Below are positions 1-6,811 of a DNA stretch of 64,000 nt, in pieces. The first letter of the stretch is position 1, and every line of letters starts with the position of its first letter. Under the pieces are notes generated by a model. The model searched no databases, was not told the DNA's origin, and saw only the letters and a program-made list of their open reading frames with translations. This DNA comes from a candidate division FCPU426 bacterium. Its GTDB lineage: Bacteria; Oederibacteriota; Muellerivitia; Muellerivitales; Muellerivitaceae. The stretch spans positions 192,001-256,000 of the forward strand of contig CAWCKJ010000003.1 in the NCBI GenBank assembly GCA_963796105.1, given 5' to 3'. The position numbers and the translations under genes were made by a program.

Positions 1-2
1 CT

Positions 3-374
3 CAAGGCGAGATAGTCGAATGTGGGGCTTACACTTATGGAAAAATATATTTATACCCGTGTTGTAATTGTACGATTAGATTTTTAACACAAGTTTTCTT
101 GCACGAACTTCATCACGCTTGGGTTCATCAATATCATCCAGACATTCACTCCAAAGAAAAAGATAGTAAACAAGCTGAATTTTTTGCTGATGCTGGATTT
201 AAAGTATTGGGTGGAAAAATTCGGCCAAAAAATGTTTGCGGAAGTTATGAATTAAACATCCAAGATGCATTAAAGCGTATCGACAAATTCTTGGAGTTTT
301 CAAAATCTCTTACTAGGCGGAATAGTAAAGACGTTTTAAAATGGAGCCATAGGAATAAGTCGGCTTTTGCTTGA
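3..374 (+). CDS. 5'-truncated ORF with HExxH zinc-metallopeptidase-like motif
   Basis: Frame is open from the window edge (QGEIVECGAYTYGKIYLYPCC...VFLHELHHAWVHQ) to TGA at 374; HELHH motif with a downstream E (KQAEFFA). Confidence 0.55.
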   Translation, partial: QGEIVECGAYTYGKIYLYPCCNCTIRFLTQVFLHELHHAWVHQYHPDIHSKEKDSKQAEFFADAGFKVLGGKIRPKNVCGSYELNIQDALKRIDKFLEFSKSLTRRNSKDVLKWSHRNKSAFA

Positions 375-733
375 GAACTCTATTTATTGTTCAGTTTAGG
401 CTATTGACGGGACTTAAAATAGAACCTTGAAAGTTCACCTTTTAATCAGTGTGGGCCGCCTTTCTTGTGTTTTTAACGATTAATTTTTCCTGCGAAGCAT
501 CAACCTCTTACTGAAAATCCTGATTATTTTCGAAAATTTACAATTTAAAACTTAAAATTACATTGTTATCGGTCTCTCCTGCCCATATATCCAGGAACCT
601 TAACCCAGGGGGTGCACACCAACCCAATATTGGGATCTCTCAACCCAGTTTCAGAGGGATAAACCGCCCACATTTTCGTCGTCCAGGGTAGGTTTCCGTC
701 GTACGTTGAAGTGGTTTCTATTGGGCGTTAGGG

Positions 734-821
734 AGTAAGTCGGGCAGTAAGCCAGTAAGTCGGGTGGTAAGCCGGTAAGTCGGGCGGTAAGCTGGTAAGT
801 CGGCCGGTAAGCCGGTAAGTC
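734..821. repeat. Tandem repeat block A, 20-bp unit RGTAAGTCGGGCGGTAAGCC, about 4.4 copies
   Basis: Units start at 734, 754, 774, 794, with a partial unit at 814. Confidence 0.9.
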
Positions 822-846
822 TCAGGAACTCTGGAATCAGGGGCAT

Positions 847-1130
847 CAACCCAGTTCCAAAGCCGGGAACCAGTTCTGCAGAGGCCCACAACCCAGTTCC
901 AAAGCCGGGAAACAGTTCTACGGAGGCCTGTAACCTAGTTCCAAAGCCGGGAAGCAGTTCTACGGAGGTCCGCAACCCAGTTCCAAAGCCGGGAACTAGT
1001 TCCACGGAGGCCCCCAACCCAGTTCCAGAGCCGGGAACCAGTTCCGCGGAGGTCCGCAACCCAGTTCCAAAGCAGGGTACCAGATCCCCGGAGACCCACA
1101 ACCCAGTTCCAAAGCCAGGAACCAGTTCCA
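847..1130. repeat. Tandem repeat block B, 42-bp unit (CAACCCAGTTCCAAAGCCGGGAACCAGTTCYRCGGAGGYCNN), 7 copies (last one partial)
   Basis: Units start at 847, 889, 931, 973, 1015, 1057, 1099 (exact 42-bp period); internal GTTCC...GGAAC inverted repeat in most units. Confidence 0.92.
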
Positions 1131-1173
1131 GAGTTCCGGGGTTTTCGGATTCTCGAGTTCCCATGCTTCCGGG

Positions 1174-1293
1174 CTAGTTCTCGGGTTCTCGGATAGTTCT
1201 TGGGTTCCCGGTTAGTTCTCGGGTTCTCGGCTAGTTCTCGGGTTCTCGGCTAGTTCTCGGGTTCTCGGCTAGTTCTCGGGTTCTCGGCTAGTT
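1174..1293. repeat. Tandem repeat block C, 19-bp unit CTAGTTCTCGGGTTCTCGG, 6 copies
   Basis: Units at 1174, 1193, 1212, 1231, 1250, 1269; the last three are identical. Confidence 0.92.
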
Positions 1294-1300
1294 GGAGGCT

Positions 1301-1545
1301 CAACCCAGTACAACCCAGTATGGGTGGGCTCTACCCAGTATGGGAGGCGGCAACCCAGTACAACCTAGTATGGGGTGGTTCAACCCAGTATTGGAGGCTA
1401 GCAACCCAGTACAACCCAGTATGAGAGGGCTCAACCCAGTATTGGAGGCTGGCAACCCAGTACAACCCAGTATTTGGAAAACCCTCAACCCAGTATTGGA
1501 GGCCCCAACCCAGTACAACCCAGTATGAGAGGGCTCAAACCAGAG
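1301..1545. repeat. Repeat block D: 10-bp core CAACCCAGTA x14 in a higher-order unit of about 51 bp
   Basis: Cores with at most 1 mismatch at 1301, 1311, 1331, 1351, 1361, 1381, 1402, 1412, 1432, 1453, 1463, 1486, 1506, 1516; degenerate copy at 1536. Confidence 0.92.
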
Positions 1546-1575
1546 AGAAACAGGGGTCAGGCCATCATTCATCAC

Positions 1576-1603
1576 TTTACAAATAGTGTGAGTTGTTTAC
1601 AAT
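1576..1603 (+). promoter_or_regulatory. Putative sigma70 promoter for the transposase (likely leaderless mRNA)
   Basis: TTTACA (1576-1581), 16-bp spacer, TACAAT (1598-1603); ATG at 1610 with no Shine-Dalgarno. Confidence 0.5.
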
Positions 1604-1609
1604 GCCCTA

Positions 1610-2548
1610 ATGCCAAGGCCTAAACGGATCCATTATGAAGGGGCGGTTTACCATGTAACCTCGCGCGGTAATGAACGGCGAAAGATTGTTATGAATGACG
1701 CCGACCGCTGGATGTTTATTCGGTTATTGGGGGAAATGGTTGAAGAGAATGGTGTGTTATGTCACGCTTGGGTATTGATGGATAATCATTACCATTTGAT
1801 GCTGGAAACCCCAAGCGCGAATTTATCAACAGCCATGAAACATTTAAACGCCCAATACACACAAAAATTCAATAAAAAGCATTATCGGAATGGGCATTTG
1901 TTCCAGGGGCGGTATAAGGCCATTATTGTGGAGAAGGACAGTTATTTAAAGGAATTAAGCCGGTATGTGGTATTGAATCCGGTAAGGGCCCGGATGGTAA
2001 AACACCCCAAAGACTGGAAGTGGAGTAGTTACCGGGCGACAGCGGGATTTGATAGGGCGGAAAAATGGCTGGAAGTGGACTGGTTATTAGGGCAGTTTGG
2101 AAAGGAAAGAAAAAAGGCGCAAAAATCATACAGGACTTTTGTGGAAGAGGGGATGGGGAAGAAAGAAAAGCCTTGGGATGATTTGTATTCGCGTATATAC
2201 CTGGGTGGTAAGGAGTTTTTGGAAAAAGTCCACGAAGTAGGGCAACGTCACAAACATTTGGATGTACCGAAATATCAGAAACACGTGGTAAAGCAAGATC
2301 CGAAAGAAGTGCTGGAGAAAGTAGGAAGAATGTATGGTGAAAAAGCGGAGGAAATATTGAGGGCAGGCAAAAGGGAGTCGGAAGCCCGGGATATGGCGAT
2401 ATATTTATTAAAGAGAAAATCAGGAATGAGTTCCAAGGCGATAGGAATGAAGATGGGGGTGGGGGAAAGCGCGGTGGGAAACCGATTGATGAAGATCAAA
2501 AAAAAGTTGGCGGAAGACAAAAAGTTTGCGCAAAAGCTGATAAAGTGA
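1610..2548 (+). CDS. REP-associated tyrosine transposase (Y1/HUH, IS200 superfamily) with C-terminal DnaA_C-like HTH
   Basis: MPRPKRI..YHVTSRGN N-terminus, HUH motif (MDNHYHL), LFQGRYKA, catalytic Y in RYVVLNPVRA, WKWSSY; C-terminal EARDMAIYLLKRKSGMSSKAIG. Confidence 0.9.
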   Translation: MPRPKRIHYEGAVYHVTSRGNERRKIVMNDADRWMFIRLLGEMVEENGVLCHAWVLMDNHYHLMLETPSANLSTAMKHLNAQYTQKFNKKHYRNGHLFQGRYKAIIVEKDSYLKELSRYVVLNPVRARMVKHPKDWKWSSYRATAGFDRAEKWLEVDWLLGQFGKERKKAQKSYRTFVEEGMGKKEKPWDDLYSRIYLGGKEFLEKVHEVGQRHKHLDVPKYQKHVVKQDPKEVLEKVGRMYGEKAEEILRAGKRESEARDMAIYLLKRKSGMSSKAIGMKMGVGESAVGNRLMKIKKKLAEDKKFAQKLIK

Positions 2549-2691
2549 TGAATGATGGCCTGACCCCTATGTTTACTCATCGACCATTAAAGCTTTGCCC
2601 TTTCCCTTTACAAATCATAACTTACTTCCATTTTCTAATTTTAGAACTTCTCTAAAAACCGTGAACTGTCAAACATCTTTGGAGGATTTGA

Positions 2692-3747
2692 ATGAAAAAA
2701 GAAAAAAGTGTTCGTTTAATAATTAATTTTGCTTTGTCGGTTTTAGTTTTGATGTACTCATTTATTATTAGTCATGCCGCTTCCGACTCGATCAGCTTTA
2801 CCAAAAAAGAAATCGCGTTTTTCAAATGGGGAGATGGTGAAAAAGAAATTAAATTGAACAAAATTACACATAAAACGATCGATAGAAGCAAGGGTGTGAC
2901 CCAAACATCCGAAGATTTCTTATGGCCAAGTGCCATTGTAGTTGATGGCAACGACAGTATTTATTTAAATGGTGGTAATGGACAAATTTTTATTATTTCA
3001 TCGGATGGTAGTTCGATTAAGACGGTTAGCGCGAAAAAAACTGGCGGTTTAGTGGAAGTCGATGGAGATGGGAATATATATGGTACGTATAGCAAAAAAG
3101 GTGAACCCTTGGGATTTATCCGCACCAAGCCTGATGGGACACAAGAAGTTTATAAGAATTTTGATCTAGGATATGTGGAAAATGAGATCGCCTATCCTAT
3201 AAGCAATAAAGCGATGAGCGGAAATCAACCCATAACCTTTTCTAATATAGGCGACAAGGCGGAAAAACTTCCACCACATTTATTATCTCGCGATGGAGAA
3301 GTTGATTTAGGAAAATTAATGGACGGTAAATCTTTCGTAATTCACACAAGAAAAATTAATAAGCACTTAAAAAAAATAAATCGAAGGATCGATGCCGATA
3401 AAATCTTGATTGAAGTCGAAGAGAAAGACGGCATGCCACCCCGACCGCAATTTCTGGGGATCGACGACAATGGGAATTCTTATTTTCTTTGTGGTTATCA
3501 TGGAGGGTGGAATAGCTTAGTGCCTTGGAAAGAAACGTACATAATGGCTTATTCACAGACGGGTCAGAAACTCGCCGAAATTCCAATTGATCCCGATTAT
3601 TTTGACAAGCACGTGGGTTTGGCTGAATGCCGGATAGATATTCATGGGAATCTGTTTCAAAGTTGGGCGTCCAAGGATGGAGTACATATTTTTAAATGGA
3701 CAAAAATCAAAAATGAAGCAAATGCTTCGGAGGGATTAATCGCATGA
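2692..3747 (+). CDS. Secreted protein, possible beta-propeller; paralog 1 of a tandem pair
   Basis: GGAGG RBS, signal peptide (...IISHAA), repeated VDGND/VDGDGNIY/IDDNGNSY/IDIHGNLF blade-like motifs. Confidence 0.75.
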   Translation: MKKEKSVRLIINFALSVLVLMYSFIISHAASDSISFTKKEIAFFKWGDGEKEIKLNKITHKTIDRSKGVTQTSEDFLWPSAIVVDGNDSIYLNGGNGQIFIISSDGSSIKTVSAKKTGGLVEVDGDGNIYGTYSKKGEPLGFIRTKPDGTQEVYKNFDLGYVENEIAYPISNKAMSGNQPITFSNIGDKAEKLPPHLLSRDGEVDLGKLMDGKSFVIHTRKINKHLKKINRRIDADKILIEVEEKDGMPPRPQFLGIDDNGNSYFLCGYHGGWNSLVPWKETYIMAYSQTGQKLAEIPIDPDYFDKHVGLAECRIDIHGNLFQSWASKDGVHIFKWTKIKNEANASEGLIA

Positions 3748-4736
3748 GAATAAAATTTTTACAATTGAATTTGACCTTGCTGGTTGTGACTTTTGTTTTT
3801 CATTCCGTCCTCGCCCAATCGAATTCACCCATTAGTTTCACCAAAAAAGAAATTGCGTTTTTAAAATGGGGTGACGGTAGAAATGAAGTGAAGTTGAACA
3901 AAACTAAACATAAGTTGATCGATAGAAGTAAAGGCGTAACAGAAACAAAAGAATTTGTTTCTTGGACGCGGGATATAAAAATTGACGGTAATGACAACAT
4001 TTATTTCCGTGGCGGAAATGACAAGATTTTTATTGTTTCCTCAGATGGAAGTTCGATTAAAACGATCAGCGCGAAAAAGACGGGTGGATTAATGGATGTT
4101 GATGATGACGGTGATATTTTTGCCCCTTACCACAAAATAGGCGAACCAGAGGGTTTTATACGCACCAAGCCTGATGGAACGCAAGAAGATTTCAAACATT
4201 TCAGTGCAAACTATATGGAAAACGGTATTGCTTATGACATAAATAAAAATAAGGCGATAACCATAGCCGACAAAGGCGACCAGCCTGAGAAACTCCCACC
4301 GCGTTTGTTCTCTCGTGTGGGTGAAGTCGATTATGGAATAAATGCCGGGGGTGAATTGTGCACGATTTACACGAAAAAAATTAATAAACATTTGAAAAAA
4401 ATAAATCAAAAGATTGATGCGGATAAAATCCATATAAAGGTCGAAGAAAAAGACGGCATGCCACCTCGATCACAATTTCTTGGGATTGACGACAATGGCA
4501 ATTCTTATTTTTTGTGCGGTTATTATGGAGGACGGAATAGCTCAGTGCCTTGGAAAGAAACATATGTCATGGTTTATTCCCAGACTGGCCAAAAACTCAC
4601 CGAAATACCGGTTGATACCGATTATTTTGACAAACAATTGGTTTGGACTGAATTCAAGATAGATATTCACGGGATGCTGTTTCAAATGTGGACATCCGAG
4701 GATGGGATACATATTTTTAAATGGACAAAAAATTAG
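3744..4736 (+). CDS. Secreted protein, possible beta-propeller; paralog 2 of a tandem pair
   Basis: ATGA overlap with the upstream gene; signal peptide (...HSVLA); long near-identical blocks with paralog 1 (ISFTKKEIAF, FIRTKPDGTQE, VEEKDGMPPR, QFLGIDDNGNSYFLCGY). Confidence 0.75.
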   Translation: MRIKFLQLNLTLLVVTFVFHSVLAQSNSPISFTKKEIAFLKWGDGRNEVKLNKTKHKLIDRSKGVTETKEFVSWTRDIKIDGNDNIYFRGGNDKIFIVSSDGSSIKTISAKKTGGLMDVDDDGDIFAPYHKIGEPEGFIRTKPDGTQEDFKHFSANYMENGIAYDINKNKAITIADKGDQPEKLPPRLFSRVGEVDYGINAGGELCTIYTKKINKHLKKINQKIDADKIHIKVEEKDGMPPRSQFLGIDDNGNSYFLCGYYGGRNSSVPWKETYVMVYSQTGQKLTEIPVDTDYFDKQLVWTEFKIDIHGMLFQMWTSEDGIHIFKWTKN

Positions 4737-5089
4737 GTTTTTATTTAATCGCGATTTTCTTTTGGCTGAAGAGTTCGATTGCTTATCCACAATCGGGCCT
4801 GCCAACGCCTGTTGCCGCTGCTTCTGTTTACGTCACACTCAGCACCAATTTTAATGTGAGTGCTAAGACTGGTTCTGTTCCGATTATTGATTTATTAACC
4901 AATGCTTATAATGATAGCCCTAATGTAACTCTTTTGGACCCTCCCCCACCTTTTGATCTGAACGCTTATCTGAAAGCCAACCCTGGCGTCCCATCATTCC
5001 CGGTGATCGTCCAAATGCCTTTAGAAACTTATGTCAAGGGGGTAGTGTCACAGGAAATAGGAGTACCTCAAACGGGGATAATCCAGTAA
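4721..5089 (+). pseudogene. Probably truncated secreted SpoIID/LytB-like protein
   Basis: Signal peptide, then MPLETYVKGVVSQEIG resembling the SpoIID LEeYlkGVvpaEm motif; the ORF stops 8 codons later. Confidence 0.45.
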
Positions 5090-5364
5090 CAGATGGGATA
5101 TTCCAATCACAAACTGAGATATTCCAGTCTCAAACGCCGATATGCCAGCCGGGTTACCTGCTGGCAGGCGCTGGCATCCTTGCTGGCAGAAGCTTGTACC
5201 CTTGCTGGCATAAGGCTGGGGCCCTGCCCGCAGGTGTTTGGGTCCTCGGTGTTTACTAAATTCCATGAATCCCCCATATTCTGCAGCCAAGTGCTATTTT
5301 AGCTAGGTGTGCTTCAAAATAAGTTTTCAGCGGTACCCTGAAGCAGGAAAAGGCAGGTGAAATC

Positions 5365-5778
5365 ATGAAATTTCTGACAGAACACCTATGGTTCAATACC
5401 AAGAAGCACCGGGAATACATCAACATCACCCCGGATGTGGAAAAGGCCGTAAGGAAAAGCGGCATAAAAGAGGGCATGGTGCTGGTATCCGCCATGCATA
5501 TTACCGCGGGGGTTTACGTGAATGACGCGGAGGACGGGCTGATCGAGGATATCGATGAGTGGCTTGAAAAGCTGGCCCCCTTCCGCCAGGATTACCGGCA
5601 CCACCGGACCGGTGAAACCAACGGGGATTCGCACTTGAAGAGCATGCTTGTCCACCACCAGGTGATCGTGCCGGTGACGGATGGAAAATTGGATTTTGGG
5701 CCCTGGCAGCAGGTTTATTACGCCGAGTTTGATGGGCAGAGGAAGAAGAGATTGATCATCAAAGTGATGGGGGAATAA
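5365..5778 (+). CDS. yjbQ: YjbQ/UPF0047 family protein
   Basis: [42 protein letters not shown] motifs. Confidence 0.9.
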
Positions 5779-5870
5779 ACGTTTAAAAAAGCTTTCACCA
5801 CAGGTCCCCTTGGGACCACAGGGGCACAAGAAGGAACAAACCAATAAAACGTCTCACGTTACAGTTTTTA

Positions 5871-6095
5871 GCCACAGATTCATGGGATTTAAAGAAATTT
5901 CAGATCGTGACAAAGGCTTTGCCTTTGCGCCCGTCGGGCGATATGGCCAAGTCCACGGGCCTCGGAAAAATAGATTTTCCCGGAGGCCGACGGCATTGGC
6001 CATCTAACGCGATCATTAGTTTTTTTTCAGTATTTATTATCCGTCTTTCATTCTGCTGATTTGTATTTATCCCCTGCATCTCCTGAATCTGTGGC
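5871..6095. repeat. Intergenic MITE/REP-like element with 12-bp terminal inverted repeats
   Basis: GCCACAGATTCA (5871-5882) is the reverse complement of TGAATCTGTGGC (6084-6095). Confidence 0.5.
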
Positions 6096-6138
6096 AAAAG
6101 ATTTGGTCTTTATTGGTCAATTTTGAATGGAGGTTTAA

Positions 6139-6435
6139 TTGGAATCATCGAAGCCGGAATTTGAGAAATACATATTCGTCTGCGTCAATGAAAGGCCCTC
6201 GGGAGAGCGGGTTTCCTGTGGGGGCTCGGGTTGCGGCAAGGAATTGGCCGCCCGGCTCAAGGACGAAGTGAAAAAGGCCGGGTGTGCCGGCAAAATCCGG
6301 GTCTCGAAATCCCAATGCCTGGATGTCTGCGAGGAGGGGCCGAACGTCCTTCTGTATCCAGATAATACCTGGTTTAAAAATGTGGATCTGGACGATATCC
6401 CCGCCATCCTTGCAAAAGCGGGAATCCAGCCCTAA
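6139..6435 (+). CDS. Thioredoxin-like [2Fe-2S] ferredoxin
   Basis: IFVCVNER...SCGG, KSQCLDVCEEGP, YPDNTWF pattern; GGAGG RBS before TTG. Confidence 0.88.
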   Translation: MESSKPEFEKYIFVCVNERPSGERVSCGGSGCGKELAARLKDEVKKAGCAGKIRVSKSQCLDVCEEGPNVLLYPDNTWFKNVDLDDIPAILAKAGIQP

Positions 6436-6468
6436 AGTAGTCCTGTTGATTGGAATTTTATGGAAAGT

Positions 6469-6811
6469 GGGGGTGACCGGTTTCGACTGGGGAACTGAAC
6501 TTTTGGATGCGTGTCGAGGCGCCATCGCTCGTCAAACATGGCAACGGTTTAACTGCCGACAATCAGTTAGCTCTCGCCGCTTAAAGCGGCTAGCGTTTTA
6601 CCCTTGATGCCTATTAGGGGGATAGAACGTAAGCAGTAGGCTGGTCCGGATCAGGGTTGCTCCACCGATGGACGGACGAGAACCAATGGGGCTGGCTCTC
6701 CGCCGGCCGCTCGGGAGCGAGCGGGGGGCGAGACTCTTTCCTGAGCTACGCACGTAGTATCCATAACGGAGGTTTTTCAGGACGTGGGTTCGATTCCCAC
6801 CACCTCCACCA
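6469..6811 (+). ncRNA. ssrA: tmRNA; tag peptide ADNQLALAA encoded at 6555-6584
   Basis: 5' GGGGGTGACCGGTTTCGAC; 3' GTGGGTTCGATTCCCACCACCTCCACCA with the acceptor stem pairing; internal GCC GAC AAT CAG TTA GCT CTC GCC GCT TAA. Confidence 0.95.

Follow-up and report, generated by a model that had tools for sequence, protein, structure and literature searches.

What is a chain of four different tandem repeats doing at the very edge of a transposable element, and does it belong to that element? The question is raised near the start of the window (the whole 64,000-nucleotide stretch of DNA that was analyzed), where a repeat tract at positions 620-1543 stops just short of a HUH transposase gene and its inverted repeats. 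An earlier note proposed that the tract could be a protein-binding array for the DnaA_C-like HTH of the neighboring enzyme, or else the outcome of successive rounds of HUH nicking in which short hairpins were amplified. The reading favored here, which we hold to be probable, is a different one: the tract would be a gene-less mosaic of a phased-array family, likely sites for CTPase-less ParB-HTH proteins that are predicted to be membrane-anchored, and a TIRtron end came to adjoin it.

Architecture of the repeat tract

Tandem Repeats Finder (TRF) confirmed the four tandem blocks reported earlier, namely block A (20 bp x 4.3, 735-821), block B (42 bp, or 2 x 21, x 6.8, 847-1130) and block D (51 bp x 5.0, 1292-1543) on the plus strand, and block C (19 bp x 6.4, 1172-1293) in a minus-strand reading. 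The core CAACCCAGT occurs in 19 exact plus-strand copies between 641 and 1524 and only once elsewhere in the 64 kb when both strands are counted; with one mismatch, block D holds 14 copies and another lies at 620. The sharing of an 8-bp core by blocks D and B, the isolated copies at 620 (one mismatch) and 641, and the palindrome at 623-634 are as first described. The array, said to end about 10 bp from the left inverted repeat of the transposase, proved to be separated by 9 bp from a perfect 28-bp inverted repeat (TIR, 1552-1579 / 2541-2568). Helical phasing, proposed for the tract as a whole, holds for block B, where cores are 42 bp apart, and for block D, where they are spaced by 10, 20, 21 or 23 bp, but fails for block C, whose 19-bp period is not a multiple of the helical turn and runs off-phase.

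At the start of the tract (620-700, plus strand), the two isolated cores precede one unit each from two further array families, and the unit at 657-674 is the one repeated 14-16 times upstream of the ParB-like paralog at C4:1196536. This order of modules recurs at C11:130172 and C4:1266369 (83-86% over 63-69 nt). The module of block A is present as a single copy at the corresponding position in the C11 tract, and block A is a local expansion of that module; no cognate gene was found for it. The inter-block gaps at 822-846 and 1126-1171 are degenerate units of other genome-wide families. The first is a plus-strand linker with a fragment of a 52-bp family (88% to C11:130088); the second consists of degenerate 52-bp-family units which, together with block C, form a minus-strand segment (1126-1293) matching C4:151734, C4:264106 and other places at 75-86%. 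Block C itself resembles the family upstream of paralog C2:369072. Block B belongs to a family that forms a 21-bp x 22 array directly upstream of a ParB-HTH/TM paralog (C12:9469-11142, minus strand) as well as three orphan tracts; it is 71% identical to C12:11601 and 75% to C4:63823, and conservation is flat along its unit. Block D, for which no cognate gene was found either, reaches 84-91% in its top four matches, among about 10 other segments of the genome. For each of blocks B, C and D, 3-10 further loci give a match, and at C11 and C4 the junctions at 620-688 and 800-859 are seen again with the same module order. We infer from this that the tract is probably a mosaic of pieces copied out of a common pool, and that different modules were expanded from place to place.

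The earlier statement that the array is neither a CRISPR nor a single VNTR stands, as its units run head-to-tail without the unique spacers that accompany constant repeats in a CRISPR and the tract is a mosaic of several families. A known RNA was likewise rejected: an Rfam search of window positions 1-6468 gave no match over the array. That the array is an artefact of assembly is most improbable. No public record covers it in its entirety, yet a 212-bp contig of the public run X2, which is possibly related to the source sample, is identical to window 608-819 with zero differences, and a second X2 contig matches 1041-1097. Furthermore, the units differ among themselves and the same families are present in a second genome, so that a collapsed or invented repeat is unlikely as the source of the array.

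The neighboring TIRtron

Judged by its sequence, the element at 1552-2568 can be assigned to the known TIRtrons, whose transposase (TIRYT) falls in TnpA-Y1 subclass 2.1.2. Its 312-aa ORF (1610-2548, plus strand) encodes a Y1 HUH transposase that matches PF01797 (E 2e-13, 50.8 bits against a cut-off of 23) and ends in a DnaA_C-like HTH, matched by PF08299 (Bac_DnaA_C) at E 8e-5, below the curated cut-off. The left TIR (1552-1579, plus strand) begins with (A)GGGGTCAG and fits GGGG[AT][CG]A[CG], leaving the array outside the element; the right TIR (2541-2568, minus strand) is its perfect 28-bp complement, and its outer flank is not array DNA. The Y1 HUH core, the DnaA_C-like C-terminus, the GGGG[AT][CG]A[CG] TIRs and the lack of REPs are all shared with TIRtrons. 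The treatments of TIRtrons in PMC3733652 and PMC6006769 describe no tandem arrays, and the elements here differ in being multi-copy and near-identical at unrelated sites; for subclass 2.1.2, PMC6006769 reports that REP-like flanks were not found.

Seven full TIRtron copies, 97-100% identical and in unrelated contexts, are present in this genome (G000): the window copy and those at C3:664918, C4:1337783, C4:1409079, C6:76874, C11:134319 and C12:333360. REP-associated RAYTs, by comparison, are typically single-copy. The seven elements are apparently recently mobile, and such copies at unrelated sites provide evidence that TIRtrons transpose. About 30 further TIR ends exist in the genome besides these. 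In four of the seven copies the right end is a variant one that carries an inserted strong hairpin (z -5.9/-8.8). Outside each TIR, 5-7 bases are conserved and mirrored between the two ends, in the relatives L010, L013, L020 and L031 as well; in some cases (L004, L009, C6:194879) these bases are tandemly duplicated together with the beginning of the TIR. They may be a clue to target choice or mechanism.

Is the array then the TIRYT's own binding or nicking substrate, or a product of HUH nicking and hairpin amplification? The closeness of block D to the TIR and the extra HTH of the enzyme would fit, and the window copy is not alone: when all ends are read, three of the seven copies abut an array, the second (C11:133279) abutting the same D family and the third (C3:665958) the 52-bp family. 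Nonetheless, we consider it very unlikely that the array serves or stems from the transposase. The abutting end varies (left in the window, right in the other two), array DNA lies on the other flank of none of the three, and four of the seven copies have no array at either end. Among 28 homolog loci from relatives, inspected for a 9-mer repeated four times within 1.5 kb, none has an array. On the other side, the genome-wide count of CAACCCAGT gave 240 matches, mostly clustered, with dozens of array loci lacking a TIRYT. Folding argues the same way. Scored with DNA parameters against 60 shuffles, the plus and minus strands gave z values of -2.8/-1.5 for block A, -1.1/-0.9 for B, -1.3/+0.5 for C and +1.8/+2.9 for D; the small palindromes thus give no folded ssDNA in blocks B-D, only A, on one strand, folds better than its shuffles, and D folds worse. 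An array made by HUH nicking of hairpins is therefore rejected on folding and distribution.

Transposase loci without arrays, and the same repeats elsewhere without the transposase, are what the earlier note had named as speaking against its proposal, and both are found here. The array is not part of the neighboring transposase's element, and the TIRYT is not the arrays' cognate protein. What survives of the proposal is that the tract is most likely an array of phased protein-binding sites; the DnaA_C-like HTH does not survive as its partner, as the arrays track another protein family.

Nor does the tract behave as a REP, REPIN or BIME: its units do not fold as ssDNA hairpins (z between -1.3 and +2.9 in B-D, with only A on the plus strand at -2.8), and it does not consistently flank the Y1 gene (3/7 own copies, 0/28 homolog loci). 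REP/BIME mosaics and REPtrons, as introduced in PMC3733652 and PMC6006769, are likewise dispersed intergenic mosaics of few modules. The arrays here differ in being direct repeats with no stable hairpins and no GTAG/CGTC tags, and in their link to a putative DNA-binding protein of predicted membrane location, whereas REP/BIME are linked to RAYT. IS elements are found within BIMEs, which resembles the IS in the arrays described below.

ParB-like proteins downstream of phased arrays

Clustering of the genes beside arrays yielded one family of six genes, always directly downstream and each with a different repeat. The short proteins have no Pfam match and no PDB match by sequence. Their N-terminal 145 residues were modelled at pLDDT 82; the top 17 Foldseek rows for this model are all ParB/Noc/Spo0J, at E 0.06-0.9 (above 0.001), and VIA ranked first the ParB DNA-binding domain 6s6h (rmsd 3.5, 102 aligned) with Z 7.3, a value near background for helical models. 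By HMM, the short proteins are homologous to proteins with ParB_N. Model and homology together indicate that they carry a ParB-type HTH DNA-binding domain. All five long homologs scanned match Pfam ParB_N, four of them above cut-off; the short clade begins at the HTH domain, and ParB_N is present in none of the eight short proteins scanned, so the N-terminal CTPase domain is missing. In a quick tree that omits the truncated L115 and by which L082 and L085 are classed as long though their frames start late, the short genes group as a single clade (SH-aLRT 99). Behind the HTH domain, a TM helix is predicted for most genes, and in many there is a C-terminal region of PH-like fold (Foldseek E 0.002-0.06), the end of which we take, by eye, to be PDZ-like. 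A multi-paralog family of full-length ParB-CTPase proteins, without arrays, is also found (C3:513333-515696, C3:264615-265247, L081-L089, L099-L101 and others); many of its members share that C-terminal domain and are predicted to contain TM helices.

An array stops 5-162 bp ahead of the gene at 39 of 41 short genes but at 0 of the 31 other family members, a comparison whose p-value is overstated, the short clade having a single origin and not representing 72 independent tests. As for the two misses, TRF detects an array at one (L110/L098), and at the other (L122) the array lies on the far side of an IS110; arrays are also present at both of the metagenome loci fetched later (L182, L183). An exception outside the 31 is a longer ParB-like gene, C4:1322953, which follows a mosaic array at a distance of 229 bp. 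Of 400 core spacings, 303 measure 20-23, 41-44 or 63-65 bp, and array periods in the genome are 21/22, 42/43 and 51-53 bp. The module has no common neighbor across 25 loci, the genes beside it differing at every locus; none of the roughly 25 neighbors scanned with Pfam is a ParA. ORF6N-domain genes, AAA-DUF4143 ATPases and small toxin-antitoxin genes (L053:3742-4278, C12:176529, C4:428751, L163, L172) are frequent near arrays or modules. A single palindromic site upstream of the long paralogs was rejected, no common motif being found there in 27 loci.

The family is narrow. At E<=1e-10, 76 proteins match among 1.8 billion representatives, and matches among 61 genomes are confined to one family plus one other genome. 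Scans of genome and viral contigs with narrow peptide patterns gave no confirmed match, which is not evidence of absence. No description of the array-gene module was found in the open-access literature, and the ParB-like family, membrane-anchored by prediction, is apparently undescribed.

Does each protein fit its own repeat? Sister proteins have common cores (L102/L054, L107/L072, L139/L142), and per-column mutual information between residues and bases gave nothing significant after family-wise correction (best p 0.10). A windowed partial correlation of protein against motif, without L115 and with L057 (a duplicate of L090) left out of the motif alignment, peaks in the HTH at residues 27-34 (r 0.30, family-wise p 0.002), falling to about 0.2 at residues 40-50 and near 0 at 84-130. 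With sister rows dropped, residues 10-20 score too, and the signal could have its source not in recognition but in a joint transfer of the array and the gene's 5' end. In post hoc comparisons, the recognition-helix quartet [DNS]S[QH][IL] goes with GGCA-ending cores in 8/8 proteins and KSQV with GGAA in 3/3 and later in L183, and the sister pairs L109/L119 and L147/L150 differ in both quartet and core. For ParB/Noc, four residues of the recognition region are reported to switch specificity (PMC7383237). The roughly 40 natural pairs of a ParB-type HTH domain and a candidate site would represent far more specificity variety than the parS/NBS pair, with which changes of specificity in this family have been studied.

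The likeness to ParB-parS and Noc-NBS, as portrayed in PMC7383237 and PMC8429893, lies in the DNA-binding fold (by structure search) and in paralog-specific sites; Noc is said there to bring dispersed chromosomal sites to the membrane, and to need CTP in order to spread and reach it (PMC8429893). The array-linked proteins differ from these in having no CTPase domain, and so presumably no clamp or spreading, and a predicted true TM helix with a PH-like/PDZ-like outer domain in place of the amphipathic helix of Noc. Their candidate sites are direct repeats every 21-22 bp, as opposed to single 16-bp palindromes, and each genome holds 5-10 paralogs, every one with another core and, in the neighbor subset scanned, without ParA nearby. 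Lacking a CTP clamp, such a protein could not spread from one site, so that many dimers would be loaded on sites two helical turns apart, on one DNA face toward the membrane. The loaded protein would then control its own gene and tether that DNA. Compared with Noc, a clamp-less TM protein with many one-face sites would make a coherent alternative design, and a clade that lost the clamp and carries multiplied, one-face sites may allow the purpose of CTP-driven spreading to be tested directly.

Other known systems share single aspects of this arrangement. The F-plasmid sopC centromere consists of 43-bp tandem units bound by SopB, and both sopC and plasmid iterons are tandem, helically phased sites beside the gene of their binding protein. 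A 43-bp period is common in the arrays as well, which are, however, chromosomal, multi-family, mosaic and mostly gene-less, with no Rep or partition ATPase beside them in the subset of neighbors scanned. CadC and ToxR are membrane-integrated one-component regulators with a cytoplasmic HTH, a single TM and an outer domain that reach DNA from the membrane. The array-linked proteins differ in their ParB-type DNA-binding domain, which is not of the winged-helix OmpR type, and in the 4-30 phased sites before their own gene.

Orphan mosaics and mobile elements

A strict detector run on the IS-stripped genome, which misses some tracts such as the D tract of C11, returned 53 loci, or 48 after 5 of other repeat types were set aside. 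Against these roughly 48 tracts stand five intact short genes. The window tract, with no linked ParB-like gene, is one of the resulting orphan mosaics, beside a known TIRtron. The phased ACCCAGT pattern occurs in 2/61 genomes, this one and the same-genus genome G001, both of which hold the L072/L107/L122 clade. In G001, CAACCCAGT arrays are found at 12 loci, 10 of them without a short ParB-like gene in the fetched stretch. Between the species the ACCCAGT arrays keep core and 21-bp spacing and differ in their tails; a single G001 array contains a mixture of T, A and G variants after the core, which places blocks B and D in the same family. At least two G001 orphans (L203, L205) occupy slots that hold an array of another family in G000, and one orthologous slot contains different array+HTH pairs in the two genomes, and the pair in G001, with its array, is 84% similar to a paralog that G000 has at another location. 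At another G001 locus, L204 (C50:77000-85500), an array sits at a synteny break: the genes on its two sides correspond to G000 locations far from one another, both of them beside array DNA, which suggests rearrangement between arrays. Orphan mosaics probably arise through swap or loss of array-gene modules and recombination of array pieces between loci, while slippage enlarges one module here and another there, and they would act as distant tether or decoy sites and as insertion hot spots.

A tract of the same origin might have no role at all, being a neutral minisatellite left by lost modules that tolerates insertions. The window locus has no cognate gene, and a gene remnant was sought there without success; the flanking genes, which are strain-level accessory genes, could not be anchored in relatives, and for that reason no empty site was found. 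Block C has lost its phasing, conservation along block B is flat, and the likeness of the D copies indicates recent spread. Functionless debris is on these grounds a serious possibility, albeit one we do not prefer: orphan tracts in two species keep core and 21-bp spacing amid unrelated tails, the slots L203 and L205 keep an array in both species despite the change of family, and the cognate paralog of block B is intact in this genome.

Several kinds of mobile element have landed in or beside array tracts. With the strict detector, arrays, which make up 3.4% of non-coding DNA, were found at 9/20 IS21 copies (IS21a 3/5, IS21b 6/12, IS21c 0/3), 2/10 IS3 and 2/7 TIRYT copies, compared with 0/53 for IS1595 (0/24), IS4 (0/9) and IS1380 (0/20). 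The three array-avoiding families prefer AT-rich sites, so that base composition may explain part of the contrast. In G001, IS3 and IS256 also split or abut arrays. Orphan mosaics would represent a novel type of dispersed chromosomal element, one in which insertion sequences and rearrangements are concentrated.

A weak connection between the TIRYT and the arrays persists. Of 21 TIR ends with no transposase behind them, 11 show an array within 1.5 kb on the inner side and none on the outer side, against a background of about 7%. A TIR with a leader of about 370 bp recurs before arrays at 6 loci, the homology beginning at the TIR. Among 20 relative loci, 4-5 have a TIR-like end directed toward the module, and at C12:331463 a TIRtron end truncates a duplicated piece made up of array and gene. 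Given the three TIRtrons that abut an array and the one-sidedness of the solo ends, the TIRYT may at times move array-bearing DNA. A stronger version, in which the arrays belong to the ParB-like family but owe their spread and the building of mosaics mainly to the TIRYT, working in trans through solo TIR ends, seems doubtful to us. Seven of the 11 array-facing ends are copies of one TIR + leader unit, so the events are few, and no array-gene module bracketed by two inward TIRs was found. The window array lies outside its element, none of the 10 gene-less G001 loci has a TIRYT gene or TIR, and IS21 and IS3 ends mark junctions equally often. The TIR end and leader make up a non-coding unit of about 420 bp before arrays (L211:210-650 on the minus strand, C3:745441, C3:734911, C4:1265455, C12:177633, C2:367130, C3:496875) that folds at z -3.85 and has no Rfam match. 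It holds a twin hairpin of about 75 nt with apparent compensatory changes, present in 10/24 family genomes and also inside ParB-like genes.

The orphan mosaic as we read it could be part of a wider scheme, which we offer as rather unlikely in its entirety. A ParB offshoot would have exchanged the CTP sliding clamp for private phased arrays and a membrane anchor, creating a swappable protein-address code. Dozens of gene-less mosaics would then serve as docking stations with several addresses each, fixing many chromosomal loci at the membrane, directing IS21, IS3 and TIRYT insertion and functioning as rearrangement hubs, and the TIRYT would move array cargo in trans.

Other features of the window lie around the tract. 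Positions 1-374 (L001:11836-12375) are the 3' part of a gene for 179 aa, which has an HExxH motif and was found only in this genome among 41 searched. Two tandem paralogs of 351 and 330 aa (2692-3747 and 3744-4736) have an N-terminal hydrophobic stretch and no Pfam match; a third copy lies near another array (C6:81581), and G001 has a 29% match. Short 21-22-bp tandem repeats occur at 5069-5219, at the end of a 122-aa ORF, and a tmRNA gene (Rfam RF00023, 174 bits) follows at 6469-6811, with the array and the TIRtron 4-6 kb upstream.
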